Shown here one piece after another: positions 5,345 through 56,834 of a stretch of 64,000 nt of DNA. The notes under the pieces are model-generated. The model was given only the letters and a program-made list of their open reading frames with translations. It made no database searches and was not told where the DNA came from. Position 1 is the first letter of the stretch. Every line of letters starts with the position of its first letter. Made by a program: the position numbers and the translations under genes. The stretch lies in the NCBI RefSeq assembly GCF_988242995.1, contig NZ_OZ547043.1, one strand, 5' to 3'.

Positions 5345-5430
5345 GCGGCCGGATAAGGCGTTAACGCCGCATCCGGCAATGGTGAACGATGCCTGATACG
5401 ACGCATCACGCGTCTTATCAGGCCTACCCG
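5345..5430. repeat. REP/BIME extragenic palindromic repeats
   Basis: gccggataaggcgttaacgccgcatccggc and gcctgatacgacgcatcacgcgtcttatcaggcctac motifs. Confidence 0.8.
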
Positions 5431-43278: not shown

Positions 43279-43325
43279 TCGATGTTAGTAACTTCAAGCC
43301 TATGATTCTTGAAGATAATAAATAT

Positions 43326-43349
43326 CCTCCGGCATAGCCGGAGGTTTTT
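43326..43349 (+). terminator. Hairpin + T-run; yfgI terminator, or possibly an IS200 right-end structure
   Basis: cctccggc-atag-gccggagg followed by ttttt. Confidence 0.6.
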
Positions 43350-43425
43350 CAAATGCGCCTGTAAGGCTCTGTTACCAGCCGCGCCCTAACAGGCGCATAC
43401 GATCTGACATTTGCATTCAACTTCG

Positions 43426-43884
43426 TTACTTACGGCCCGTAAACGGGCTGCCCGGATATGGAATCGATAACTGCTCCCCCATTTTATCCTCTTCAAGCTG
43501 GTGCTTTATGTAGTCACGTATCTTCGCCGTGTTCTTACCCACCGTATCGACATAGTACCCTCGGCACCAGAACTCCCTGTTTCTGTATTTGAATTTCAAA
43601 TCCCCAAACTGCTCGTAAAGCATCAGACTGCTTTTCCCTTTCAGATATCCCATAAAGCCGGATACGCTCATTTTGGGTGGGATTTCCACAAGCATATGGA
43701 TATGATCTGCGCAGCACTCTGCTTCCAGAATCCGTACGCTTTTCCACTCACACAGCTTTCTCAAAATACTGCCTATCGCCCTACGCTTCTCTCCGTAAAA
43801 CGCCAGTCTTCGGTATTTCGGCGCAAAAACTATGTGATATTTACAGTTCCAGCGGGTGTGCGCTAAGCTCTTTTCGTCCCCCAT
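43426..43884 (-). CDS. tnpA: IS200-type Y1 transposase TnpA
   Basis: ORF 43426..43935; start at MGDEKSLAHTRWNCKYHIVFAPKYRR (152 aa); HIHMLVEIPP HUH motif and catalytic Tyr region RGYYVDTVG. Confidence 0.9.
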   Translation of the reverse strand: MGDEKSLAHTRWNCKYHIVFAPKYRRLAFYGEKRRAIGSILRKLCEWKSVRILEAECCADHIHMLVEIPPKMSVSGFMGYLKGKSSLMLYEQFGDLKFKYRNREFWCRGYYVDTVGKNTAKIRDYIKHQLEEDKMGEQLSIPYPGSPFTGRK

Positions 43885-44023
43885 TGGGACCCCCTTTTGA
43901 TTTCTTGTTTGACACTTGCAGTTGCCAGACCGCAAGGTGTTTTAACAAATCAAAAGGGGTTTTAATAACTGGCTCAAAGCTGAAAGCTTTCCGGAACCCC
44001 CAGCCTAGCTGGGGGTTTTCTGT

Positions 44024-44060
44024 GCACAAAAAACCCTCTGTAGTAACAGAGGGTTTTGTT
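44024..44060 (-). terminator. Rho-independent terminator of guaBA
   Basis: Minus-strand hairpin aaccctctgttactacagagggtt followed by TTTTTT, ~25 nt after guaA stop. Confidence 0.75.
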
Positions 44061-48791: not shown

Positions 48792-51700
48792 TTACTGGAA
48801 GCAGGTCACCAGACCCGGTTTATTCATTAGCGTGATACTACAATCCTGTGCTCCAGTGCCTTCGTCCATTCCACACTGTTGAGAGGACAAATAAGGAAAA
48901 CTTGGTGAAGACGGCCATCCCAGTGAATTAAAAACAGTGTGCAACAACTCTAATTCATTGTATGTCGGTGCATTTTCTATGCTGCCACACTGCCTTGCAA
49001 TATCCCATTTACTGGCATCAATGATATGTGCAGAAGCCCAGTTTTCGTAGTTAATAATCGGTGAGGATACGGGATTAGCCCCGGACGGCAATTCTGTCGT
49101 TAACAACGGTCGATGTAGCGATTTACCATTCACCACTACAGTGTCTGCCATATGTCCCCAAAAGTGCGCCGAGGAAACATTCGGGCTGGTTGGTACCGTA
49201 AAAATAGCGTCCAGCGTGTCTGTCGCGGAAGCGTAATTAGCCAGAGTAACCGTCAGTGGCGTTTTATAACCAGGGGTATTATCCTGGCGGAGCGTAAAAC
49301 TTGCCGTCCCATCCGCGCCTGTCATGCCACTAATGGTATTACCGCTTTCACTCAGCGTAACAGCCGAACCAGATAACGGCTGAACGATGAGATCGTCCAT
49401 CGCCACCACATCACCATACAACGTCGCCCCAGCGTTACGCGGCGATGCATCGCCACGTTTCAAAGTAAATTCCACATTCGGTACCGTATTCCCGGCGCTG
49501 TCTTTCACCGTCACGGTAACGGGCATGGCTTCGCCTTTTTTCACTTTCGCCGCCTGAATAGCTGCGTCAAACGCTGTTGAGGTCAGTGTGACGCTGGAAA
49601 CCGTTGCGCGCGCAGACACCAGACACGCCTGATAAGCGGCATTACCATTCAATGTCGTTGTGCCATCTTTCATATTGAGCGACTGATTTTTACCATCTGT
49701 AGTCTTATCCTGCGCCCACCAGTAATAATAAACTGACCAGCCAGTTTCCGTCGTAAGGGTGTTATTGGGATAACGTTGATACAGTGACTTCATATCGCTG
49801 AGCAACGGTTGCCGGGCTTCCTCACAAGGGCTGAGGCTGGCATTTGCTTTAGTGGTTGACGAAAAATAGGGCCAGTCCTCATTATTGTTATTGGTTTTAT
49901 TTACCCCGGAGGTCGATGGCAGCTCCTTCCACAATTTCGGTCGTTCAAAGACGGTTCCATTTGCCGCTGTCACCGTTTCTGGCATATGACCCCAGTAGTC
50001 GGCATCCTGGGCGTCAGGGCTGGTGACCACGGTAAATATCAGGTCCAGGTTTGACGTGATCTGCGGATCTTGTGCAAGCGAGACCGTAAACGGCGTTGCC
50101 AGGCCGGTGGTGGCGTTTTGCGTAACATTGAACGTCACTGTGCCATCACTGCCGGTAAAACCAAGCCATTTTGCCGTATCCTGAGCAAAGGAAATACGGG
50201 TTGCTGTCGGTGTGACGACATCTACAATAAGATCATCTGCCGACGATGAGGGCCTAATTCCTGAACGACTTTTCGCCTGCGCCCGCTGAAGCGTCACGCT
50301 CTCGCCACTCAGCAGGTTGCCATTTTGGTCTTTTACTGTCACGACTAACGGGATTGTCTCGCCCTTTTTCGCCGATGCCGAAGGTGTACCGCCGTTACTG
50401 GCGGTTTTCGTCTCATCAAATGCTATTGAAGTCAGGGTAACGCTTGACGGCTTAGAGTGAGGCTGTGCCAGGCAGAGCATTAGAGCAACCGGAGAGAGTG
50501 CGGATGATACTCGTCCCGTACTTAGGTTAAAGACCTGATAATACCAGGAGCTACCATTGGAGTTAAGCAATTCATAAATCCACCAGTTTCCTGACGCTAT
50601 CGGCAACCCCAGATCTTTCGTTAACGCCCCGTTTGGGTGATCGTCATATAACCCCTGCAATTCGCTGAGGCGCGGTTGATATTCCAGCGAACAATCTGCC
50701 GTCGCTTTTTGAGTACTATATATATATGACCATGTCTCATTATTACCGTTTACCGAGCTCCCCGTAGTCGCTTCCGCTGCCAGTAATGGGCGCTTGAAGG
50801 TCACGCCTGCCGAACTGGTAAACGTTTCCGGCATATGGCCCCAGTATTTCGCTTTTGGCGAATCCGGGCTGGTTATCACCGTGAAAATGACATCCAGCGT
50901 GACGCTTTTCGAGGTATCGCGCATGAGTTCTGCGCTGAGCGGCGTTGACAGCCCATAACTGCTATTCTGGCTGACCTCAAACGTAGCTTTACCATCGCTC
51001 CCTGTCTTCAGGAGAGCCTGCGTCCCATCCCCATACAAGATTGACGTTACCCCAGTAGGTTCCACAGGTATGATGGTAAGATCATCTGCAGAAGCATCGT
51101 ACGCAGCTTTAGCGCGGTTCAGCGCAGTCCCTCGTTTAAGGTTAAAGCTGGCACCTGGCAGTGGATTGCCTGCGCTATCTCGCACCGTAACCGTCATCGG
51201 GATAACCTCTCCCTTCTTCGCTGTTGCGCTGGGCCTGCCATCATTGCTGGCCGTTTTCGTTGCATCCTCCGCCGTTGAGGTCATTTCAATAGAAGCCGCC
51301 TCTGGATGAGGGTTTACCAGGCACAGCATTAATGCCGAGGTGCTTGAAGACGCTCTTCCACTTGATCCATTTAACAGATAAATATATTGATCGTACCAGT
51401 TACCCGCATATGCCACCATGTCGTAAGCCCACCAGTAGCTATTTACCGGAATACCCAGATCGGTCTTTATCGCACGACTTGGGTGTTCGTCGTACAATGC
51501 CTGTAGTTCGCTTAACAGTGGTTGATAATGTACATCGCACCCGCTTTTATCGATATCCCCCTTTGTTGCCGATCTCAACACGGCCCACTCTTCATTGTCT
51601 TCTATAAACGACTGGCCCGACGATCTTTCAGCAGAGAGTAAGGGGCGTTTGAAGGCAGTACCAGAACGCGTAGTGAACGTTTCCGCCATATGCCCCCAGT

Positions 51701-54700
51701 AACTTGCCAGGGGGGTATCCGGGCTGGTTATCACGGTAAACATCACGGGTAATTTGTTGGATTCCAGGCTCGACTGATAGGCCTGAGCGTACACATTGGT
51801 TACCAGGCCTATAGAATCATCCTGCTTTACCGTAAACGTGGCTGTCCCGTCTGCACCTGTCACCGCATAAAGGGAGATTGATGGAGTATCCACTCTTGCC
51901 GACGTTCCCGCTGCGTTGATTACAGTGATAGTTCTGTTCGACAACTGTACATTCTGGCGATTTGTCGATCCTTCACGTTTGAGAATAAACGGAACATTTG
52001 GTACGACATTTCCCTGCGCATCTTTTGTCACCACGCGAATCACCGCGTCGTCACCTTTTTTCCGTTTTAGTGCGCTGAGGGTTTCGTCAACTTTGACAAA
52101 TTGTGTCGCATCGTTCGCTTCAACAATAATGTGGCTGGTCACCGCCACTGGGGTAGCCCGACAACTTAGCAGTCCTAGACTGCTTGACATGACCTCCGTT
52201 CCATCACCCGTTTTTAACGAAACCGCTTTAAAATTAAATGTTTGAGTGTAATAGGCAACAACCGTACTGGAGATATAGGCGCGTGATACAGGCCATCCCG
52301 TAACGTCATGTATTGGCACGTAACCTTCATCGGCATACAGTGACTCCAGCTCACTTTCAATCGGGACATATCCTGCACCGCAACCATTTACAGATGTGTT
52401 GTTCGACTGGTCCGGCGAGAACAGTGACCAGCTCTCTCCATCTTCCTGAAAAGAGCTTCGACTGGTTGTAACGGAAAGCTCATCTTGCAATAACGGTCTT
52501 TTATAAATAAGCCCGCCTGCACCGGTCATCGTTTCGGCCATATGCCCCCAGAATTTTGCTTTAGGGGTATCGGGGCTGGTTATCACCGTAAAGACCACCG
52601 GAAGCATTGATTTTACGTTATTATCTGTATCCAGCATGGCGGTCAGTTCGGTTTTTAAACCCGTGGTATTGTCCTGTTTCAGTGCAAGTGTTGTCGTACC
52701 ATCTGCGCCGGTAACGCCATAAATCAGTGCTGTTGTTGAGGAAAAATTACTCTGCGTGTTACCCCAGGCATCCGTCACGATGAGCGCGCCTGCTGTCACC
52801 GTTGTAGACGCATTTGCCCGATTGACGCTAAGGTTACGTTTAAGCGTAAACGCGGTATTTCCCACCGGGTTACCCTGCGAATCTTTAGTGGTCACGCGAA
52901 CCACGACTTCTTCCCCTTTTTTCGCTTTGACAACATTATTCGTACTGTCAAATTTCGCGGGGTCCGCAGCCTCAAGAACGATTTGGCTTGCCTTGACGAT
53001 CGGCGTCGTCTGGCAGGTAAGCAGTTCTTTTGTGGCCGATGGAATTATCGAACTGGTGCCTGAACTGAGATTGACGGCCTTGAAGTCACGCTGTTCCAGA
53101 CTACTGCTGCCTGTCGTGCTGGAAAGGTAACTTGAGGCGACGGGCCAGCCCTGAACCGTTTTCATCGCATTGCCGCGGTTGGCTTCATACAATGACTCCA
53201 GCCCGGCCTGGGAGGGAACATATTCACTACCACAACCATTAGAGGATGTGCTTGTCGCCTGAGTTTGGGTAAATTGCGCCCAGTCCTCATTATCTTCTGC
53301 AATCGCTGTTCGACCCGACGTACTGGATAACTCTTTCAACAATAATGGGCGTTTAAAGACCGTTCCATCCACAGCCGTCACCGTTTCAGGCATATGCCCC
53401 CACATTTTCGCCTTATCGCTGTCCGGGCTGGTGACAACGGTAAAAATGGTATCGAGGGTCGCTTTTTTCGTTGTGTCTGAATAGAGCGCGGCGGTCAGCG
53501 ACGTTTTTGTGCCATGGGTATCCGGGCGGGTAATAGTGAGAATTTTAGTGCCATCGCTGCCGGTCATCGCGCTGTATGCTGCGGCGGTATCATTGAGCGA
53601 AGTTTCATCCGCCAGGCCACTATTGATCACAACCGGCGCAACCAGCGCATCACCGCTACCGGCAATGTGTTTTTCGTTTGATCGGGTATAACCATCGCCA
53701 CGCTTCAGCGTAAAAGGCATATCACCCAATGGATTGCCCTGAGCATCTTTTACCGTCACCTTCACCTGTAGCGTTTCGCCTTTTTTCAGCTTCGCCGCAT
53801 TTGCTGCCGCGTTCCACTGCGCCGGGTCCACCACTTCCAGCGTAATGCTGCTGGCAGGATTGTTAGCCGTCGTCAGGCAACTGACATAAACCGCCGTGCT
53901 ACCGCCAATGGTCCGCGCGCCATCGTTGAGGGCTATGGTGTAGTAATGCGGCACCTGATCCGCGGGCGAACTGCTCCAGTAGGGCTGACGCTGCGTTGGC
54001 CAACCGTGTACCGTTTGAACGGCGTTACCGCTGTTAGCATCATAGAGCGCGTTAAGCTGGGAACGGCGTGGGAGCATATTGGCACCACAGCCACCTTTAC
54101 TGGTGCTGGAAGTGTTGGCCTGGCTAACGCGCGACCACACTTCGTTATTTTCCGTTAATGTGCCGTCCGGGCTGAACACTTCCGCAGCCAGCCGGGGTCG
54201 GGCAAAGGTTAATGCATCGACGGTAATCGTCTCATCCATATGACCCCACATCTGCGCGCCAACCGCATCCGGACTGGTGAGCGTAGTGAAAATCACATTG
54301 TAATTAACAGTATTGGGAATATAGGAGTTTACAGGCGCAATATTCAGCGGCGTCGCTAAGCCCACACCTTGCGGTTGCTTAATTTCCACAGTAGCAAAAC
54401 CCTGCGCATCCGTAGTACCTGCATAGACTAAAGACGGTTGCGATGTTCCGTAGAGCGTGCCATTCATCTCGATTGCGCCGCGGGTTGGATCATCGAAACC
54501 CGTGCTCTGCCCCTGACGATTTTTCCCCATATCTTTAGTGATGGTGAACGCGGTATACGGCACGGGCGCATTACTCAAGGCATTAAAGGTGCGTACCGTC
54601 ATGGTAATCGTTTCACCCACTTTAGCCTGCGCTCTGCTGCTTGTGGAAACATCATGATCGGTGGTCGCAGCAATCTGGGCGACCATCTCATTGCCCGAAC

Positions 54701-56834
54701 AAGAAAGGTAGTTTTGCTTAAAGCCGGAATAGGTGTCGATGTTGCCCGTGGCCAGGTTCACCGACGCGTGCGACGTCTCTTCCACCGCACTAAGATACGC
54801 TTTTTGCAACGTTGGCCAGCCATATTCGGTGCCGATGACATTGGCTGGATGTGCGGCAAACAAACTGTGCAATGAGCTTTGGCTCGGAATATGACCTAAA
54901 CCACACTCAGCCTGCATACTGCTATTCTGATCAAACAGCGCCCAGTCTTCGTTATTTTCCCGCACTGCTCCCAGTTCGTTGTCGGTTTCATCCGCCAGCC
55001 GTGGGCGTTTAAAGATATTATTCGCTTCAATAATGCCTAACATATGTCCCCACATCCGCGCTTTGTCGGAATCAGGGCTGGTGATCACCGTAAAAATAAC
55101 GTCTTTCTCATCCGAGGCGGTAAAATCACTGCGCATTTTCGCGGTGATGTGTGTTTTCACCCCCACGCCGCCTGGCTGGGTCAGCGTCAGAGAGGCCTCT
55201 CCGTTAGCATCAGTGATCCCTTCATAGGTATGGGCGTCAACTTTGCGAACGTTACTGCCACCATCAATTTGTACCGGGTGCGTCTCCCACGCAGCGTCAG
55301 TTTGATTCTTACGGTTAACACCGTCATCCAGATGCAGCGAAAAGTAGTAGTAAGCCAGCGGCTGATCGTTGTTCTTGCTATCGGTAATCGTCAGGCGTAA
55401 AGAAGCCTCTTCCCCCACCTTTACTTTCATCGCTTTTATCGTCGAATCATAACTGCCCGGCGTCAGTACCAGCTTCGGTTCAACATCGGGCGCTTCTTTA
55501 TCGACACAGCTCACAATAAACGTCGTATCGTCCGGTTTTTGCGCTTCGCTGCGGTTCGAAACATCCGCCGCATGGTGCTGGCCGCTCATCCCCGCCAGTG
55601 ATGACCAGTAGAAATTACCCTGCATCGGCCAACCAGCCACATCCTGCACTGACGTTGGCACCACCGTCGCCAGCGCACCGAAATGACGCATTCCGGGCAA
55701 AATGTCGCAATGTTTATCCGCGCCGCTCCAGGTAAAGGTGGACCAGGTTTCATTGTGATCGTTAACCGTACCGTCTTCATTATCGACTTCCGCCGCCAGT
55801 TTTGGTCGACTAAAAGTGTAATCACGGGCCTTCAGCGTATCGGGCATATGACCCCACATTGTAGCCTGCGGGACATCCGGGCTGGTGAGGACGGTAAAGA
55901 TCACTGCCGTTTCACTGGCCTGAGCAATACCCGCGAGGCTCGCGACCAACGGCGTTTTTACACCAGGGCCGTTGGCCTGGGTGACCGTAACCGTGGCAAC
56001 ACCATTCGCATCAGTAGTACCACGATATTCCGTCGCGGTGGTGGTTAATTCGGTCGTGCCCAGTTTTACCGGCGCAGTATTGTTCACCACACCCTGGCGG
56101 TTTTCAGCATCTTTGCGTTTGATAACAAAAGGAATATTCCCCACAACATTACCGACGCAATCTTTGGTGGTGACCGTTAACGTGATACTGCCGCCAACCG
56201 TCGTTTTCGCCGCACCGGAGGATTCGTCATAGCCCGCGGCGCTGACGGAAATAAGGTCACCCTGCGCGGGCGCAATCTTCAGCGTCACTTTCTGATCGGC
56301 GAGGGTCAGAACACTTTCATAGGGATAGCCCGTCGAGGTAAGTAGATATAACAGCGGCATGGTCTGCTGGGGGTCTGGCTGCGCCCAGGCGATCAGCGAA
56401 CGCCCGGCAAGGCCCTGTGCGCAAAATGAGCGATCTGCGACTGGCTGTGGGTCCAGTAAGGTGTCCGGCGTCGCGGCATCCGCCCAAACTAAAGATACTG
56501 TCGGTGGCGTTTGGTTTTCCCAACGTGGTGTGGCAATGATATCGCCTTCTCTGTCTTGCGGGTTGGTGACGAGCAATTTAGAGACGCTAACATCCGCGCT
56601 GAATTCACTCGGTTTAGCGGTAAACGCTACCTCATTCGTCTTTGCAGGATCCAGAAAGACACTGCCCTGGTAGACGGGTATGCTGGCACTGTCGGCGGTG
56701 GGCACGGTACCGTTAAATTCGCCGACCGTATCTGAAGAGTCTTGCCATGCAGATTCTGCCCATGACCACCCAGGCAGCATTGCGCTTATCAGCAATGCGC
56801 ATAACACAAGGATTTTATTCAGGGTCAGGGACAT
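48792..56834 (-). CDS. Giant (2680 aa) secreted Ig-like repeat protein, RatA/RatB-like; signal peptide followed by nine tandem ~280-aa modules
   Basis: Single uninterrupted ORF; N-terminal signal peptide [26 protein letters not shown]; nine copies of the motif FTV(I/V)TSPD...(M/F/Y)WGHM; GGAG RBS 9 nt upstream. Confidence 0.85.
49000..56100. repeat. Nine diverged tandem DNA repeats (period ~800-855 bp) inside the giant gene
   Basis: Plus-strand core catatg(n)cccca (= WGHM codons) recurs at ~49148, 49983, 50832, 51686, 52539, 53391, 54237, 55041, 55846. Confidence 0.8.

Follow-up and report, generated by a model that had tools for sequence, protein, structure and literature searches.

Positions 43317–44027 of the window (the whole 64,000-nt stretch of DNA that was analysed) hold an intact IS200 element that stands alone and belongs to the IS200 group of the IS200/IS605 family. 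It lies directly 3' of the T-run of the guaA terminator, in the orientation of guaA and with no target duplication, and its site is not accidental; we put the probability of this reading at about 93%. The copy is ordinary in kind, IS200 being a known element type. It also matters little for this locus: it is a standard copy, and insertions at the same site are already annotated in RefSeq, where they are labelled 'tnpA IS200/IS605 family transposase' in other strains.

Identity and boundaries of the element

The element, its principal parts and its target are as follows.

43317–44027, minus strand: complete IS200 element of 711 bp, delimited by empty/filled alignments, with the ends 5'-GTGCACAGAAAA...GGAGGATATTTATT-3' in tnpA sense
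43326–43344, minus strand: right-end subterminal hairpin CCTCCGGC-TAT-GCCGGAGG, also given as CCTCCGGC-ATA-GCCGGAGG; fold -15.9 kcal/mol, z = -4.4
43353–43398, minus strand: second inverted repeat within the right end, flanked by the stop codon of tnpA on one side and by the hairpin above on the other; arms of 14 nt (93% complementary) around a loop of 18 nt
43426–43884, minus strand: tnpA, 152 aa, HUH/Y1 transposase with an ATG start, from Pfam, NCBIfam and structure alignments
43995–44017, minus strand: left-end subterminal hairpin AACCCCCAGC-TAG-GCTGGGGGTT, an inverted repeat and the presumed TnpA binding site; fold -18.7 kcal/mol
44016–44021, minus strand: conserved AGAAAA directly 5' of the foot of the left-end hairpin, candidate guide
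44028–44057, minus strand: the target, a bidirectional intrinsic terminator shared by guaA and yfgI, in guaA sense AAAACCCTCTGT-TACT-ACAGAGGG-TTTTTT; the IS begins after the sixth T (44028)

The boundaries were established by alignment with an uninterrupted E. coli yfgI–guaA spacer, a comparison proposed in the initial annotation, which located both the target site and the ends of the 711-bp insert to within 2 nt on either side, the uncertainty coming from A/T runs. The empty site reads GAAGAT/AAAAAACCCTCTG and the filled site GAAGAT/IS/AAAAAACCC, compared with GAAGATAAAAAACCC in the empty one. No target-site duplication was seen in the empty and filled alignments. Terminal inverted repeats are also absent: GTGCACAG... 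at one end has no inverted copy in ...ATATTTATT at the other. Of 44 complete copies taken from other genomes, 40 have the same ends, with a length of 710–711 bp; alignments with other E. coli IS200 copies have their limits at approximately 43315–43317 and 44033–44036. According to the list of open reading frames, tnpA is the only gene of the insert, without a tnpB, and yfgI and guaA directly adjoin it; no further IS200 copy was found in the 64-kb window. A composite or otherwise larger element, or a tnpB partner, is ruled out by the empty-site alignment, which confines the insert to 711 bp, in agreement with the earlier description of a single IS200-type element. The span 43310–44060 given in that description covers the whole element and reaches 7 nt into the left flank and, on the other side, across the guaA terminator. 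Its statement that tnpA is antisense is correct with respect to yfgI, but the gene runs in the same direction as guaA.

The predicted 152-aa Y1/HUH reading frame was confirmed by profile matches, both to Pfam Y1_Tnp (PF01797, E 7e-37) and to NCBIfam transpos_IS200 (NF033573, 144 bits against a cutoff of 55). Its relatives in the PDB are the solved IS200/IS608-type transposases 2ec2, 2f4f and 2a6m (E 2e-19), together with 2xm3 (E 2e-15). H61-I62-H63 forms the HUH motif and Y125 is the catalytic tyrosine, with DHIH and Y..Q kept in comparison with 2ec2 and 2f4f; a Y125F exchange gives catalytically dead TnpA (PMC4513863). Residue 123, two positions ahead of the catalytic tyrosine, is R (CGT) here and Q (CAG) in both other E. 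coli copies compared (L001 and L003), and archaeal homologues have K there. A RAYT (TnpA-REP), which has a distantly related HUH/Y1 fold and acts on extragenic palindromes, was considered and rejected: the score against NCBIfam REP_Tyr_transpos (NF047646) was 29.8 bits, below the cutoff of 80, tnpA is flanked by IS200 hairpins and not by inverted REPs, and the element is multi-copy and mobile.

The left-end hairpin, quoted in the initial annotation as cccccagc-cta-gctggggg, was found at 43995–44017, with the guaA terminator hairpin (44030–44057) directly after it. Its 10-bp arms are 100% complementary, the loop has 3 nt, and it lies 10 nt inside the element end. The exact 21-mer occurs at no fewer than 120 loci in many taxa, and the hairpin corresponds to nt 12–34 of Salmonella IS200, a bidirectional terminator (PMC4513863). 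It also forms positions 1–23 of Rfam STnc490 (RF01405), which the left end matches over the full length with 146 bits. This match lies on the tnpA-sense strand (element nt 11–134), opposite to the art200 strand; it reflects conservation of the left end and is no demonstration of an antisense RNA.

At the other end, the right-end hairpin is followed by the element tip ATATTTATT (43325–43317), which is conserved and has a variable base after it (42 of 44 copies). As in the IS200 group generally, the two subterminal hairpins differ (-18.7 and -15.9 kcal/mol for left and right). The 3' arm of the inverted repeat at 43353–43398 is similar in Yersinia pestis copies. A match to Ysr202 (Rfam) at 43285–43349 was discarded, as its 25 bits lie far below the gathering score of 315 and it was confined to the terminator-like right-end hairpin.

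This hairpin is terminator-like on both strands, and on the plus strand it is followed by TTTTT. It now occupies the place of the former yfgI terminator and would serve yfgI as a substitute, while the guaA terminator is intact and unduplicated in empty and filled sites alike. The insertion is therefore probably neutral for both neighbours.

The closest known system is IS200 of Salmonella enterica, together with the E. coli variants (IS200C and others), with which the window copy shares a length of about 0.7 kb, a single 152-aa TnpA and Y125. The left-end terminator hairpin, the SD-sequestering stem and the art200 region at their published positions (PMC4513863) are also common to the Salmonella element, as is the lack of terminal inverted repeats and of target duplication. 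The differences are the length, 711 bp compared with 707 bp quoted for Salmonella IS200, and R123.

Expression and activity

Three further features belong to the 5' part of tnpA.

43891–43959, minus strand: SD-sequestering stem-loop of the tnpA 5'UTR; MFE fold z = -3.85, Salmonella nt 69–138 (PMC4513863)
43875–43964, plus strand: predicted art200 antisense sRNA, 90 nt, with a 3' hairpin and UUUU; coordinates transferred from PMC4513863
43840–43869, plus strand: candidate art200 promoter, read by hand, with -35 TTTACA (43840–43845), an 18-nt spacer and a weak -10 TAAGCT (43864–43869)

A stem-loop sequestering the ribosome-binding site had been expected in the tnpA 5'UTR, and it is borne out by a predicted fold in which CCCCUUUUGAU is paired with AUCAAAAGGGG, by an inverted repeat with 16-nt arms (94% complementary), and by compensatory changes in 9 of 22 predicted pairs among 16 diverse copies. 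It is clear that this RNA structure is conserved. The art200 region can be mapped to the plus strand opposite this leader, and its predicted fold is stable (-38.4 kcal/mol, z = -6.0); the RNA may be expressed, by homology with its Salmonella counterpart, whose start lies at nt 153/154 (PMC4513863). A consensus scan for sigma-70 promoters inside the element returned none, the candidate art200 hexamers being sub-threshold. They fit the art200 promoter of Salmonella, which has a good -35 but a -10 that can hardly be recognised (PMC4513863), and both are kept in an IS200C copy.

By analogy with IS608 and ISDra2, TnpA of the HUH/Y1 type would bind the subterminal hairpins and move a single strand of DNA by excision and insertion ('peel and paste'). 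The tnpA-sense strand is expected to be the lagging-strand template at this locus. The GC skew of the plus strand is negative over 40–64 kb, a weak signal that fits this expectation. Going by the K-12 map, guaBA is presumably co-directional with replication in K-12. Expression of the transposase would be held very low at four levels, namely by the guaA terminator and the left-end terminator hairpin, which would block read-through, by a weak promoter, by the 5'UTR stem-loop, which would mask the ribosome-binding site, and by the predicted art200 sRNA.

In the laboratory IS200 is notorious for its inactivity (PMC4513863), and a 2024 preprint calls it essentially immobile. The present copy could accordingly be a fixed, immobile relic that now supplies regulatory RNAs (5'tnpA and art200) and no longer acts as a transposon. 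In Salmonella the tnpA 5'UTR is processed to an sRNA regulator of invF and further genes (PMC5435999 and 10.1101/2024.06.26.600842); the left end in the window is almost identical to the Rfam consensus, and the R123 substitution is unique to this copy among those compared, all of which would suit a relic. The reading frame, however, is full-length with intact HUH and tyrosine motifs, the identical protein is encoded at five or more further sites in other assemblies, and IS200 occupies up to 35 places per E. coli genome, which shows transposition on evolutionary time scales. We consider the relic doubtful, and a capacity for transposition at the present day would be in keeping with the intact motifs.

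Recurrence of the insertion in E. coli

A match to IS200 was found in 2,611 of 5,426 complete E. coli genomes, at 1–35 places per genome, and 2,065 genomes have a near-full copy; the earlier remark that only part of E. coli carries the element thus holds. At the yfgI–guaA site, 106 of the 5,426 genomes are filled at the same nucleotide and in the same orientation. The window's variant accounts for 8 of these 106, and the other 98 (52 among the matches listed) score as the IS200C type, which diverges by about 4%; IS200C copies differing to this extent from the window copy occupy the same site in ST69-type strains. The exact window locus was absent from complete RefSeq E. coli genomes. Between the window and strain E200086, the IS differs at 2 of 711 positions and the flanks at 94 of 3000, right up to the junction, while the closest relative of the window in guaBA, E. 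coli strain ST2747 (99.4%), has an empty guaA site. Since two variants about 4% apart fill the same site and the closest guaBA relative lacks the insertion, the alignments indicate that this nucleotide of the guaA terminator was occupied independently at least three times, in unrelated backgrounds and by two IS200 variants.

It could be objected that all filled sites go back to one ancient insertion, later recombined or precisely excised, so that there is no hot spot. The junctions are indeed nucleotide-identical, with the same orientation, in the three lineages examined, IS200/IS605 elements excise precisely, and gene conversion among the many copies per genome could homogenise the IS sequence. 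Yet the flanks of filled genomes differ by 1.7–4.4%, as much as those of filled and empty genomes, and the differences begin within 10–30 nt of both junctions. Nor would a single origin readily account for an IS that is nearly identical in two backgrounds whose flanks are 3% apart, with a third IS 4% off, or for the empty site in the window's closest relative. With only 106 of 5,426 genomes filled, very many excisions would be needed from an element known as inactive. We regard a single origin as very unlikely and favour repeated insertion. The proposal that the insertion marks strain lineage is weakened by the same result: being homoplastic, IS200 at yfgI–guaA is unsuitable as a lineage marker on its own.

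Terminators as probable target sites

The guaA terminator hairpin (44030–44057) is a perfect inverted repeat (100% complementary) with a fold of -17.8 kcal/mol (z = -5.9), and the left end of the element adjoins its T-run, the junction being TTTTTT/GTGCAC. The suggested tendency of IS200 towards palindromic terminators proved to be strong. Among 118 other IS200-type sites from many taxa in several phyla, 111 independent left-end flanks (94%) have a hairpin and T-run at the junction, as called by an MFE-based criterion. In the controls the share was 2.9% for random positions, 17.5% for T-rich positions and 13.7% for the ends of T-runs in ORF-free DNA (Fisher P about 1e-65 to 1e-69). Stricter hairpin detectors gave 48/118 (perfect stems only) and 71/118 (stem end at least 2 nt before the IS); these undercount, because in many terminators the A-tract pairs with the T-run up to the junction. 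A T is present at -1 in 113, at -4 in 111 and at -5 in 96 of the 118 sites. The five further sites with the exact TnpA all lie after terminator-like hairpins, downstream of genes encoding RecA, PurL-type (FGAR-AT), CcmH, CNNM/CorC_HlyC and YdgH/BhsA-like domains. For IS200-type elements, insertion is nearly confined to one kind of site, the foot of a G+C-rich hairpin with a T-run behind it.

Two observations on sequence were set aside. A G-rich motif describes the target less well than structure does, as positions -14 to -7 are G/C-mixed without a base preference. A 9-nt match between the IS interior (43367–43375) and the guaA terminator (44043–44051) is of a kind expected about once by chance in 781 nt.

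Among the 118 copies the left end hardly varies at positions +7 to +11 but does so at +3 to +6, and the conserved AGAAAA is complementary to the flanking T-run, with which it forms an inverted repeat. It may be the guide for the T-run target, by analogy with IS608; the guide and cleavage-site principle of the IS200/IS605 family is summarised in PMC6006769. On this view the conserved GAAAA on the 5' side of the left-end hairpin probably reads the T-run. We judge the odds to be about even that intrinsic terminators serve the transposases of the IS200 group as a landing pad defined by its structure, in which a G+C-rich hairpin and T-run would be presented on the single-stranded lagging-strand template, the left-end GAAAA would read the T-run, and the terminator (A-tract, hairpin, T-tract) would mimic the right end (GAAAAA-hairpin-ATATTTATT).

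IS608 (Helicobacter pylori) and ISDra2 (Deinococcus) have a homologous HUH/Y1 TnpA, subterminal hairpins and a guide 5' of the hairpin foot, and they also insert 3' of a short specific sequence without duplication. They carry tnpB and have a tetra- or pentanucleotide target, whereas the window IS200 has no tnpB and a T-run at a hairpin foot, to which the pairing of a guide is conjectural. IS1541 of Y. pestis and Y. pseudotuberculosis shares with the window copy the left-end 21-mer, the tip ATATTTATT, a length of 710–711 bp and a site after a hairpin and T-run; it differs in its host and in its first nucleotides (GTGCCCAG compared with GTGCACAG). Tandem copies occur in Y. pestis and not in this window. 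Terminator-like stem-loops were reportedly proposed as IS1541 hot spots by Odaert et al. in 1998. Group IIC introns are typically found just past terminator motifs as well, an inverted repeat followed by Ts (PMC1702495). These introns, RNA-based retroelements that have a ribozyme and a reverse transcriptase, show no homology to IS200 and have come to the same 'safe harbour' by convergence.

The position after terminators might also result from selection, harmful insertions elsewhere having been purged, and not from a choice made by the transposase. A spot just past a terminator is among the safest in a compact genome, and a 2025–26 preprint reports terminator-like sequences upstream of IS200/IS605 elements and reads them as favouring IS persistence. 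Selection for safety alone would not easily explain the exact register, with the element 0–10 nt past the stem and in one orientation at 94% of the 118 sites, when such a hairpin is present at just 13.7% of ORF-free T-run ends. The Y. pestis tandems, in which the second copy follows directly after the right-end hairpin and ATATTTATT of the first, and the reuse of the same nucleotide in E. coli also speak for a targeted process. It seems unlikely that selection is the explanation, and we prefer target choice by the transposase.

In the literature searched, the target rule of IS200 is not spelled out apart from this preprint on terminator-like sequences, and it has apparently never been explained at the molecular level. 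If the landing-pad reading is true, every genomic terminator would be a potential IS200 site, and insertion at certain terminators, such as that of guaA, would recur at an identical nucleotide even where the lineages are unrelated and the IS200 variants differ. The 94% target rule, together with the conserved GAAAA beside both end hairpins, offers a testable targeting hypothesis for the least-understood, founding member of the IS200/IS605 family.

Ends of the element and its transposase

The window region was aligned with that of a K-12-like strain in which the yfgI–guaA spacer is uninterrupted and 92 nt long. The sequence of the empty site is GAAGAT-AAAAAA-CCCTCTGTAGTAACAGAGGGTTTTG; in the window a 711-bp insert (43317-44027) comes directly after GAAGAT, AAAAAACCCTCTG then picks up again, and no target duplication was seen between the filled and empty sites. 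This comparison, proposed in the initial annotation, defined the target site and both ends, with 2 nt of slack arising from the A/T runs at both sides. In the tnpA sense the ends are 5'-GTGCACAGAAAA...GGAGGATATTTATT-3'. We compared 44 complete copies taken from other genomes: in 42 of them ATATTTATT comes after the right-end hairpin, with a variable base next to it, and 40 share the end-to-end spacing. Since the insert is bounded by the empty site, no tnpB was found in it and its neighbours are yfgI (DUF5384) and guaA, it is not part of a larger different element. No second copy was found within the window.

Right end and transposase gene (window coordinates)
43326-43344, right-end hairpin CCTCCGGC-TAT-GCCGGAGG, -15.9 kcal/mol
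43353-43398, second right-end inverted repeat, 14-nt arms, 93% complementary, 18-nt loop
43426-43884, minus strand, tnpA ORF, 152 aa, ATG start

The second inverted repeat follows the tnpA stop codon and precedes the right-end hairpin; no function is given for it in the sources examined.

The product had been described as an IS200-type Y1/HUH transposase, and it matched both Pfam Y1_Tnp, 'Transposase IS200 like' (E 7e-37), and the NCBIfam equivalog transpos_IS200 (144 bits, cutoff 55). A REP-associated tyrosine transposase (RAYT) was rejected, as the model score was 29.8 against a cutoff of 80. Among solved structures, two archaeal IS200-type transposases (2ec2 and 2f4f) are nearest, followed by IS608 TnpA (2a6m) and ISDra2 TnpA (2xm3). 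The HUH motif (H61-I62-H63) and the catalytic Y125, in a Y-x-x-x-Q context, are kept in the alignments with 2ec2 and 2f4f; it was Y125 that was mutated to give a catalytically dead IS200 TnpA (PMC4513863). We also noticed that codon 123 (43516-43518), two residues ahead of Tyr125, is CGT (Arg) in the window and CAG (Gln) in the E200086 and ST69 copies, a double-nucleotide change; the identical protein with Arg at 123 is encoded at several further loci in public assemblies.

The left end and the predicted antisense RNA

Features described for Salmonella IS200 (PMC4513863) were transferred by position, with element nt 1 put at 44028 and the tnpA ATG consequently at nt 145.

Left-end features
43995-44017, left-end terminator hairpin AACCCCCAGC-TAG-GCTGGGGGTT (Salmonella nt 12-34), -18.7 kcal/mol
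43891-43959, 5' UTR stem-loop (Salmonella nt 69-138), 16-nt arms, fold z = -3.85
43875/43874, + strand, predicted art200 start (nt 153/154)
43964, + strand, predicted end of the 90-nt art200, hairpin and then UUUU
Upstream of the art200 start, candidate promoter TTTACA, 18-nt spacer, TAAGCT

The hairpin quoted in the initial annotation as abutting the guaA terminator was located, and the RBS-sequestering stem-loop expected in the tnpA 5' UTR is also predicted: CCCCUUUUGAU would pair with AUCAAAAGGGG and bury the Shine-Dalgarno AAGGGGGU. When 16 diverse copies were compared (Vibrio, Yersinia, Brenneria, Mailhella, Saccharibacteria and Firmicutes MAGs), two-sided changes preserved pairing at 9 of the 22 base pairs in the predicted consensus structure, some of them in the 5' UTR stem.

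The left end gave a full-length match to Rfam RF01405 (STnc490; 146 bits, gathering score 56). It lies on the tnpA-sense strand at nt 11-134 (window 43894-44017) and includes the left-end terminator hairpin, and it documents conservation of the left end, not an antisense RNA. STnc490/art200 is antisense to tnpA in the literature; the strand or extent of the Rfam model apparently does not correspond to art200. Because of the strand of this match, we infer only that art200 may be expressed from this copy. The predicted 90-nt RNA folds at -38.4 kcal/mol (z = -6.0). The candidate promoter was not called by a generic promoter scan, and it agrees with the remark that in Salmonella IS200 the art200 promoter has a good -35 and an almost unrecognisable -10 (PMC4513863).

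Probable repeated insertion at the guaA terminator

In the guaA sense the left flank reads ...AAAACCCTCTGT-TACT-ACAGAGGG-TTTTTT|GTGCAC, so the sixth T of guaA's intrinsic terminator (-17.8 kcal/mol, z = -5.9) is the last base before the element, which is co-oriented with guaA. In the empty site this hairpin is bidirectional and common to the convergent yfgI. After insertion it stays with guaA. For yfgI, on the + strand, the right-end hairpin of the IS and a TTTTT tract come 48 nt past the stop codon and were scored as terminator-like in the scan, so that for guaA and yfgI alike the insertion is probably neutral. The element itself would be shielded from outside transcription on both sides. A spacer-less 12+12-nt palindrome, GGGTTTTCTGTG/CACAAAAAACCC (44013-44036), is formed where the left tip of the IS meets the T-run of the terminator, since the left-end A-run is complementary to the target T-run.

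A 641-bp core of the element matched 2,611 of 5,426 complete E. coli genomes, at 1-35 places per genome, which bears out the earlier statement that IS200 is present in only some lineages; 2,065 of them carried near-full copies. The yfgI–guaA site was filled in 106 E. coli genomes, 8 with the window's variant and the rest scoring as IS200C-type, another IS200 variant (52 of these 98 were listed, one named ST69). Insertion nucleotide and orientation were identical in all three backgrounds aligned. The IS in the window differs from that of E200086 at 2 of 711 positions, whereas the flanks differ by 94 nt over 3 kb, with several of these differences lying within 10-30 nt of the junctions; the ST69 copy differs at 30 of 711. 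ST2747, the closest match to the window's guaBA (99.4%), carries the window's variant elsewhere and has an empty yfgI–guaA spacer. The simplest reading of these comparisons is that IS200 inserted independently at this nucleotide three or more times, which weakens the proposed value of the site as a marker of strain lineage.

Just past xseA there is a 2,680-aa ORF (48792-56834, minus strand); ST2747 has at the same place a gene of about 8 kb for an 'adhesion domain-containing protein', and such a gene is presumably absent beside xseA in K-12. This ORF, together with the guaBA match to ST2747 only, suggests that the window belongs to an Escherichia lineage that is unusual and absent among complete RefSeq E. 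coli genomes. An Rfam match to naRNA4 (nucleoid-associated ncRNA 4, REP-derived) was seen at 5347-5424 (+ strand, 85.7 bits).

Insertion next to terminators and a candidate guide

An exact search with the left-end hairpin 21-mer CCCCCAGCCTAGCTGGGGGTT, one genome per GTDB species, gave at least 120 loci. The matches listed include Yersinia pestis, Vibrio ruber, Brenneria, Dickeya and Edwardsiella, and MAGs labelled Oxalobacter, Mailhella/Desulfovibrio, Bacillota, Peptococcaceae, Elusimicrobia and Saccharibacteria. The 21-mer (L004-L123) was thus seen in very distant groups, also in Thioploca and Vibrio, and often at contig ends; either the hairpin is extraordinarily conserved or recently transferred horizontally, or some MAG bins are contaminated.

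In almost all flanks, read in the tnpA sense, a G+C-rich hairpin is followed by a T-run into the element. Sites were scored positive when the last 42 nt had an MFE ≤ -10 kcal/mol, the stem end and the element were separated by ≤10 nt, and T made up 3 or more of the last 6 nt. By this rule 111 of 118 unique left-end flanks (94%) were positive, compared with 2.9% of random positions in the same loci, 17.5% of T-rich positions and 13.7% of T-run ends in ORF-free DNA (Fisher P ~1e-65 to 1e-69), confirming the suggested tendency to insert beside palindromic terminators. The mean MFE was -18.1 kcal/mol for insertion flanks and -6 to -8 for controls; T was found at -1 in 113, at -4 in 111 and at -5 in 96 of the 118 sites. 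Five more sites with exactly the window's TnpA obey the same rule, downstream of genes with RecA, PurL-type (FGAR-AT), CcmH, CNNM/CorC_HlyC and YdgH/BhsA-like domains. In Y. pestis NCTC5923 (L074, L075, L077, L091, L121) tandem copies of IS1541, the IS200-type element of Yersinia, were observed, one left end lying directly or 1 nt after the other's right-end hairpin and ATATTTATT, that is, a hairpin plus T-rich tail. This suggests that the element's own right end can act as a target.

IS200 is a classic element, and the insertion at yfgI–guaA already carries a tnpA annotation in RefSeq genomes. Odaert et al. (J Bacteriol 1998) reportedly found that 8 of 14 IS1541 sites had terminator-like stem-loops and suggested that these are hot spots. 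The regulatory RNAs of IS200 have likewise been published (PMC4513863), a 2025-26 preprint describes sequences resembling terminators upstream of ISs, IS200/IS605 giving the strongest signal, and group IIC introns occupy the same terminator niche (PMC1702495).

In IS608, the cleavage or target tetranucleotide is recognised by base pairing with a short guide that lies directly 5' of the foot of each hairpin (PMC6006769). In the window, GAAAA(A) precedes both end hairpins; at the left end it is nearly invariant in the 118 copies, the four bases ahead of it vary, and it is complementary to the T-run target, as seen in the junction palindrome. By analogy, GAAAA(A) may be a guide that pairs with the T-run, which would account for why a T-run is required. 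What the hairpin contributes is not accounted for by its sequence, because the stem positions are G/C-mixed; TnpA might recognise the terminator hairpin as a pseudo-right-end or, alternatively, the T-run might be exposed on the single-stranded lagging-strand template. The GC skew of the window's + strand is negative over 40-64 kb, and in K-12 guaBA is co-directional with replication; the orientation of the element would fit the lagging-strand bias of the family, on weak evidence that is confounded with gene orientation.

Altogether, the initial observation was confirmed and its interpretation supported, with two corrections, the homoplasy of the site and the strand of the Rfam match. What is added here is the exact ends, evidence for recurrent insertion at one nucleotide, a sharper target rule and a candidate guide. 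We give about even odds (0.5) that terminators are a structure-defined landing pad read by the GAAAA guide.
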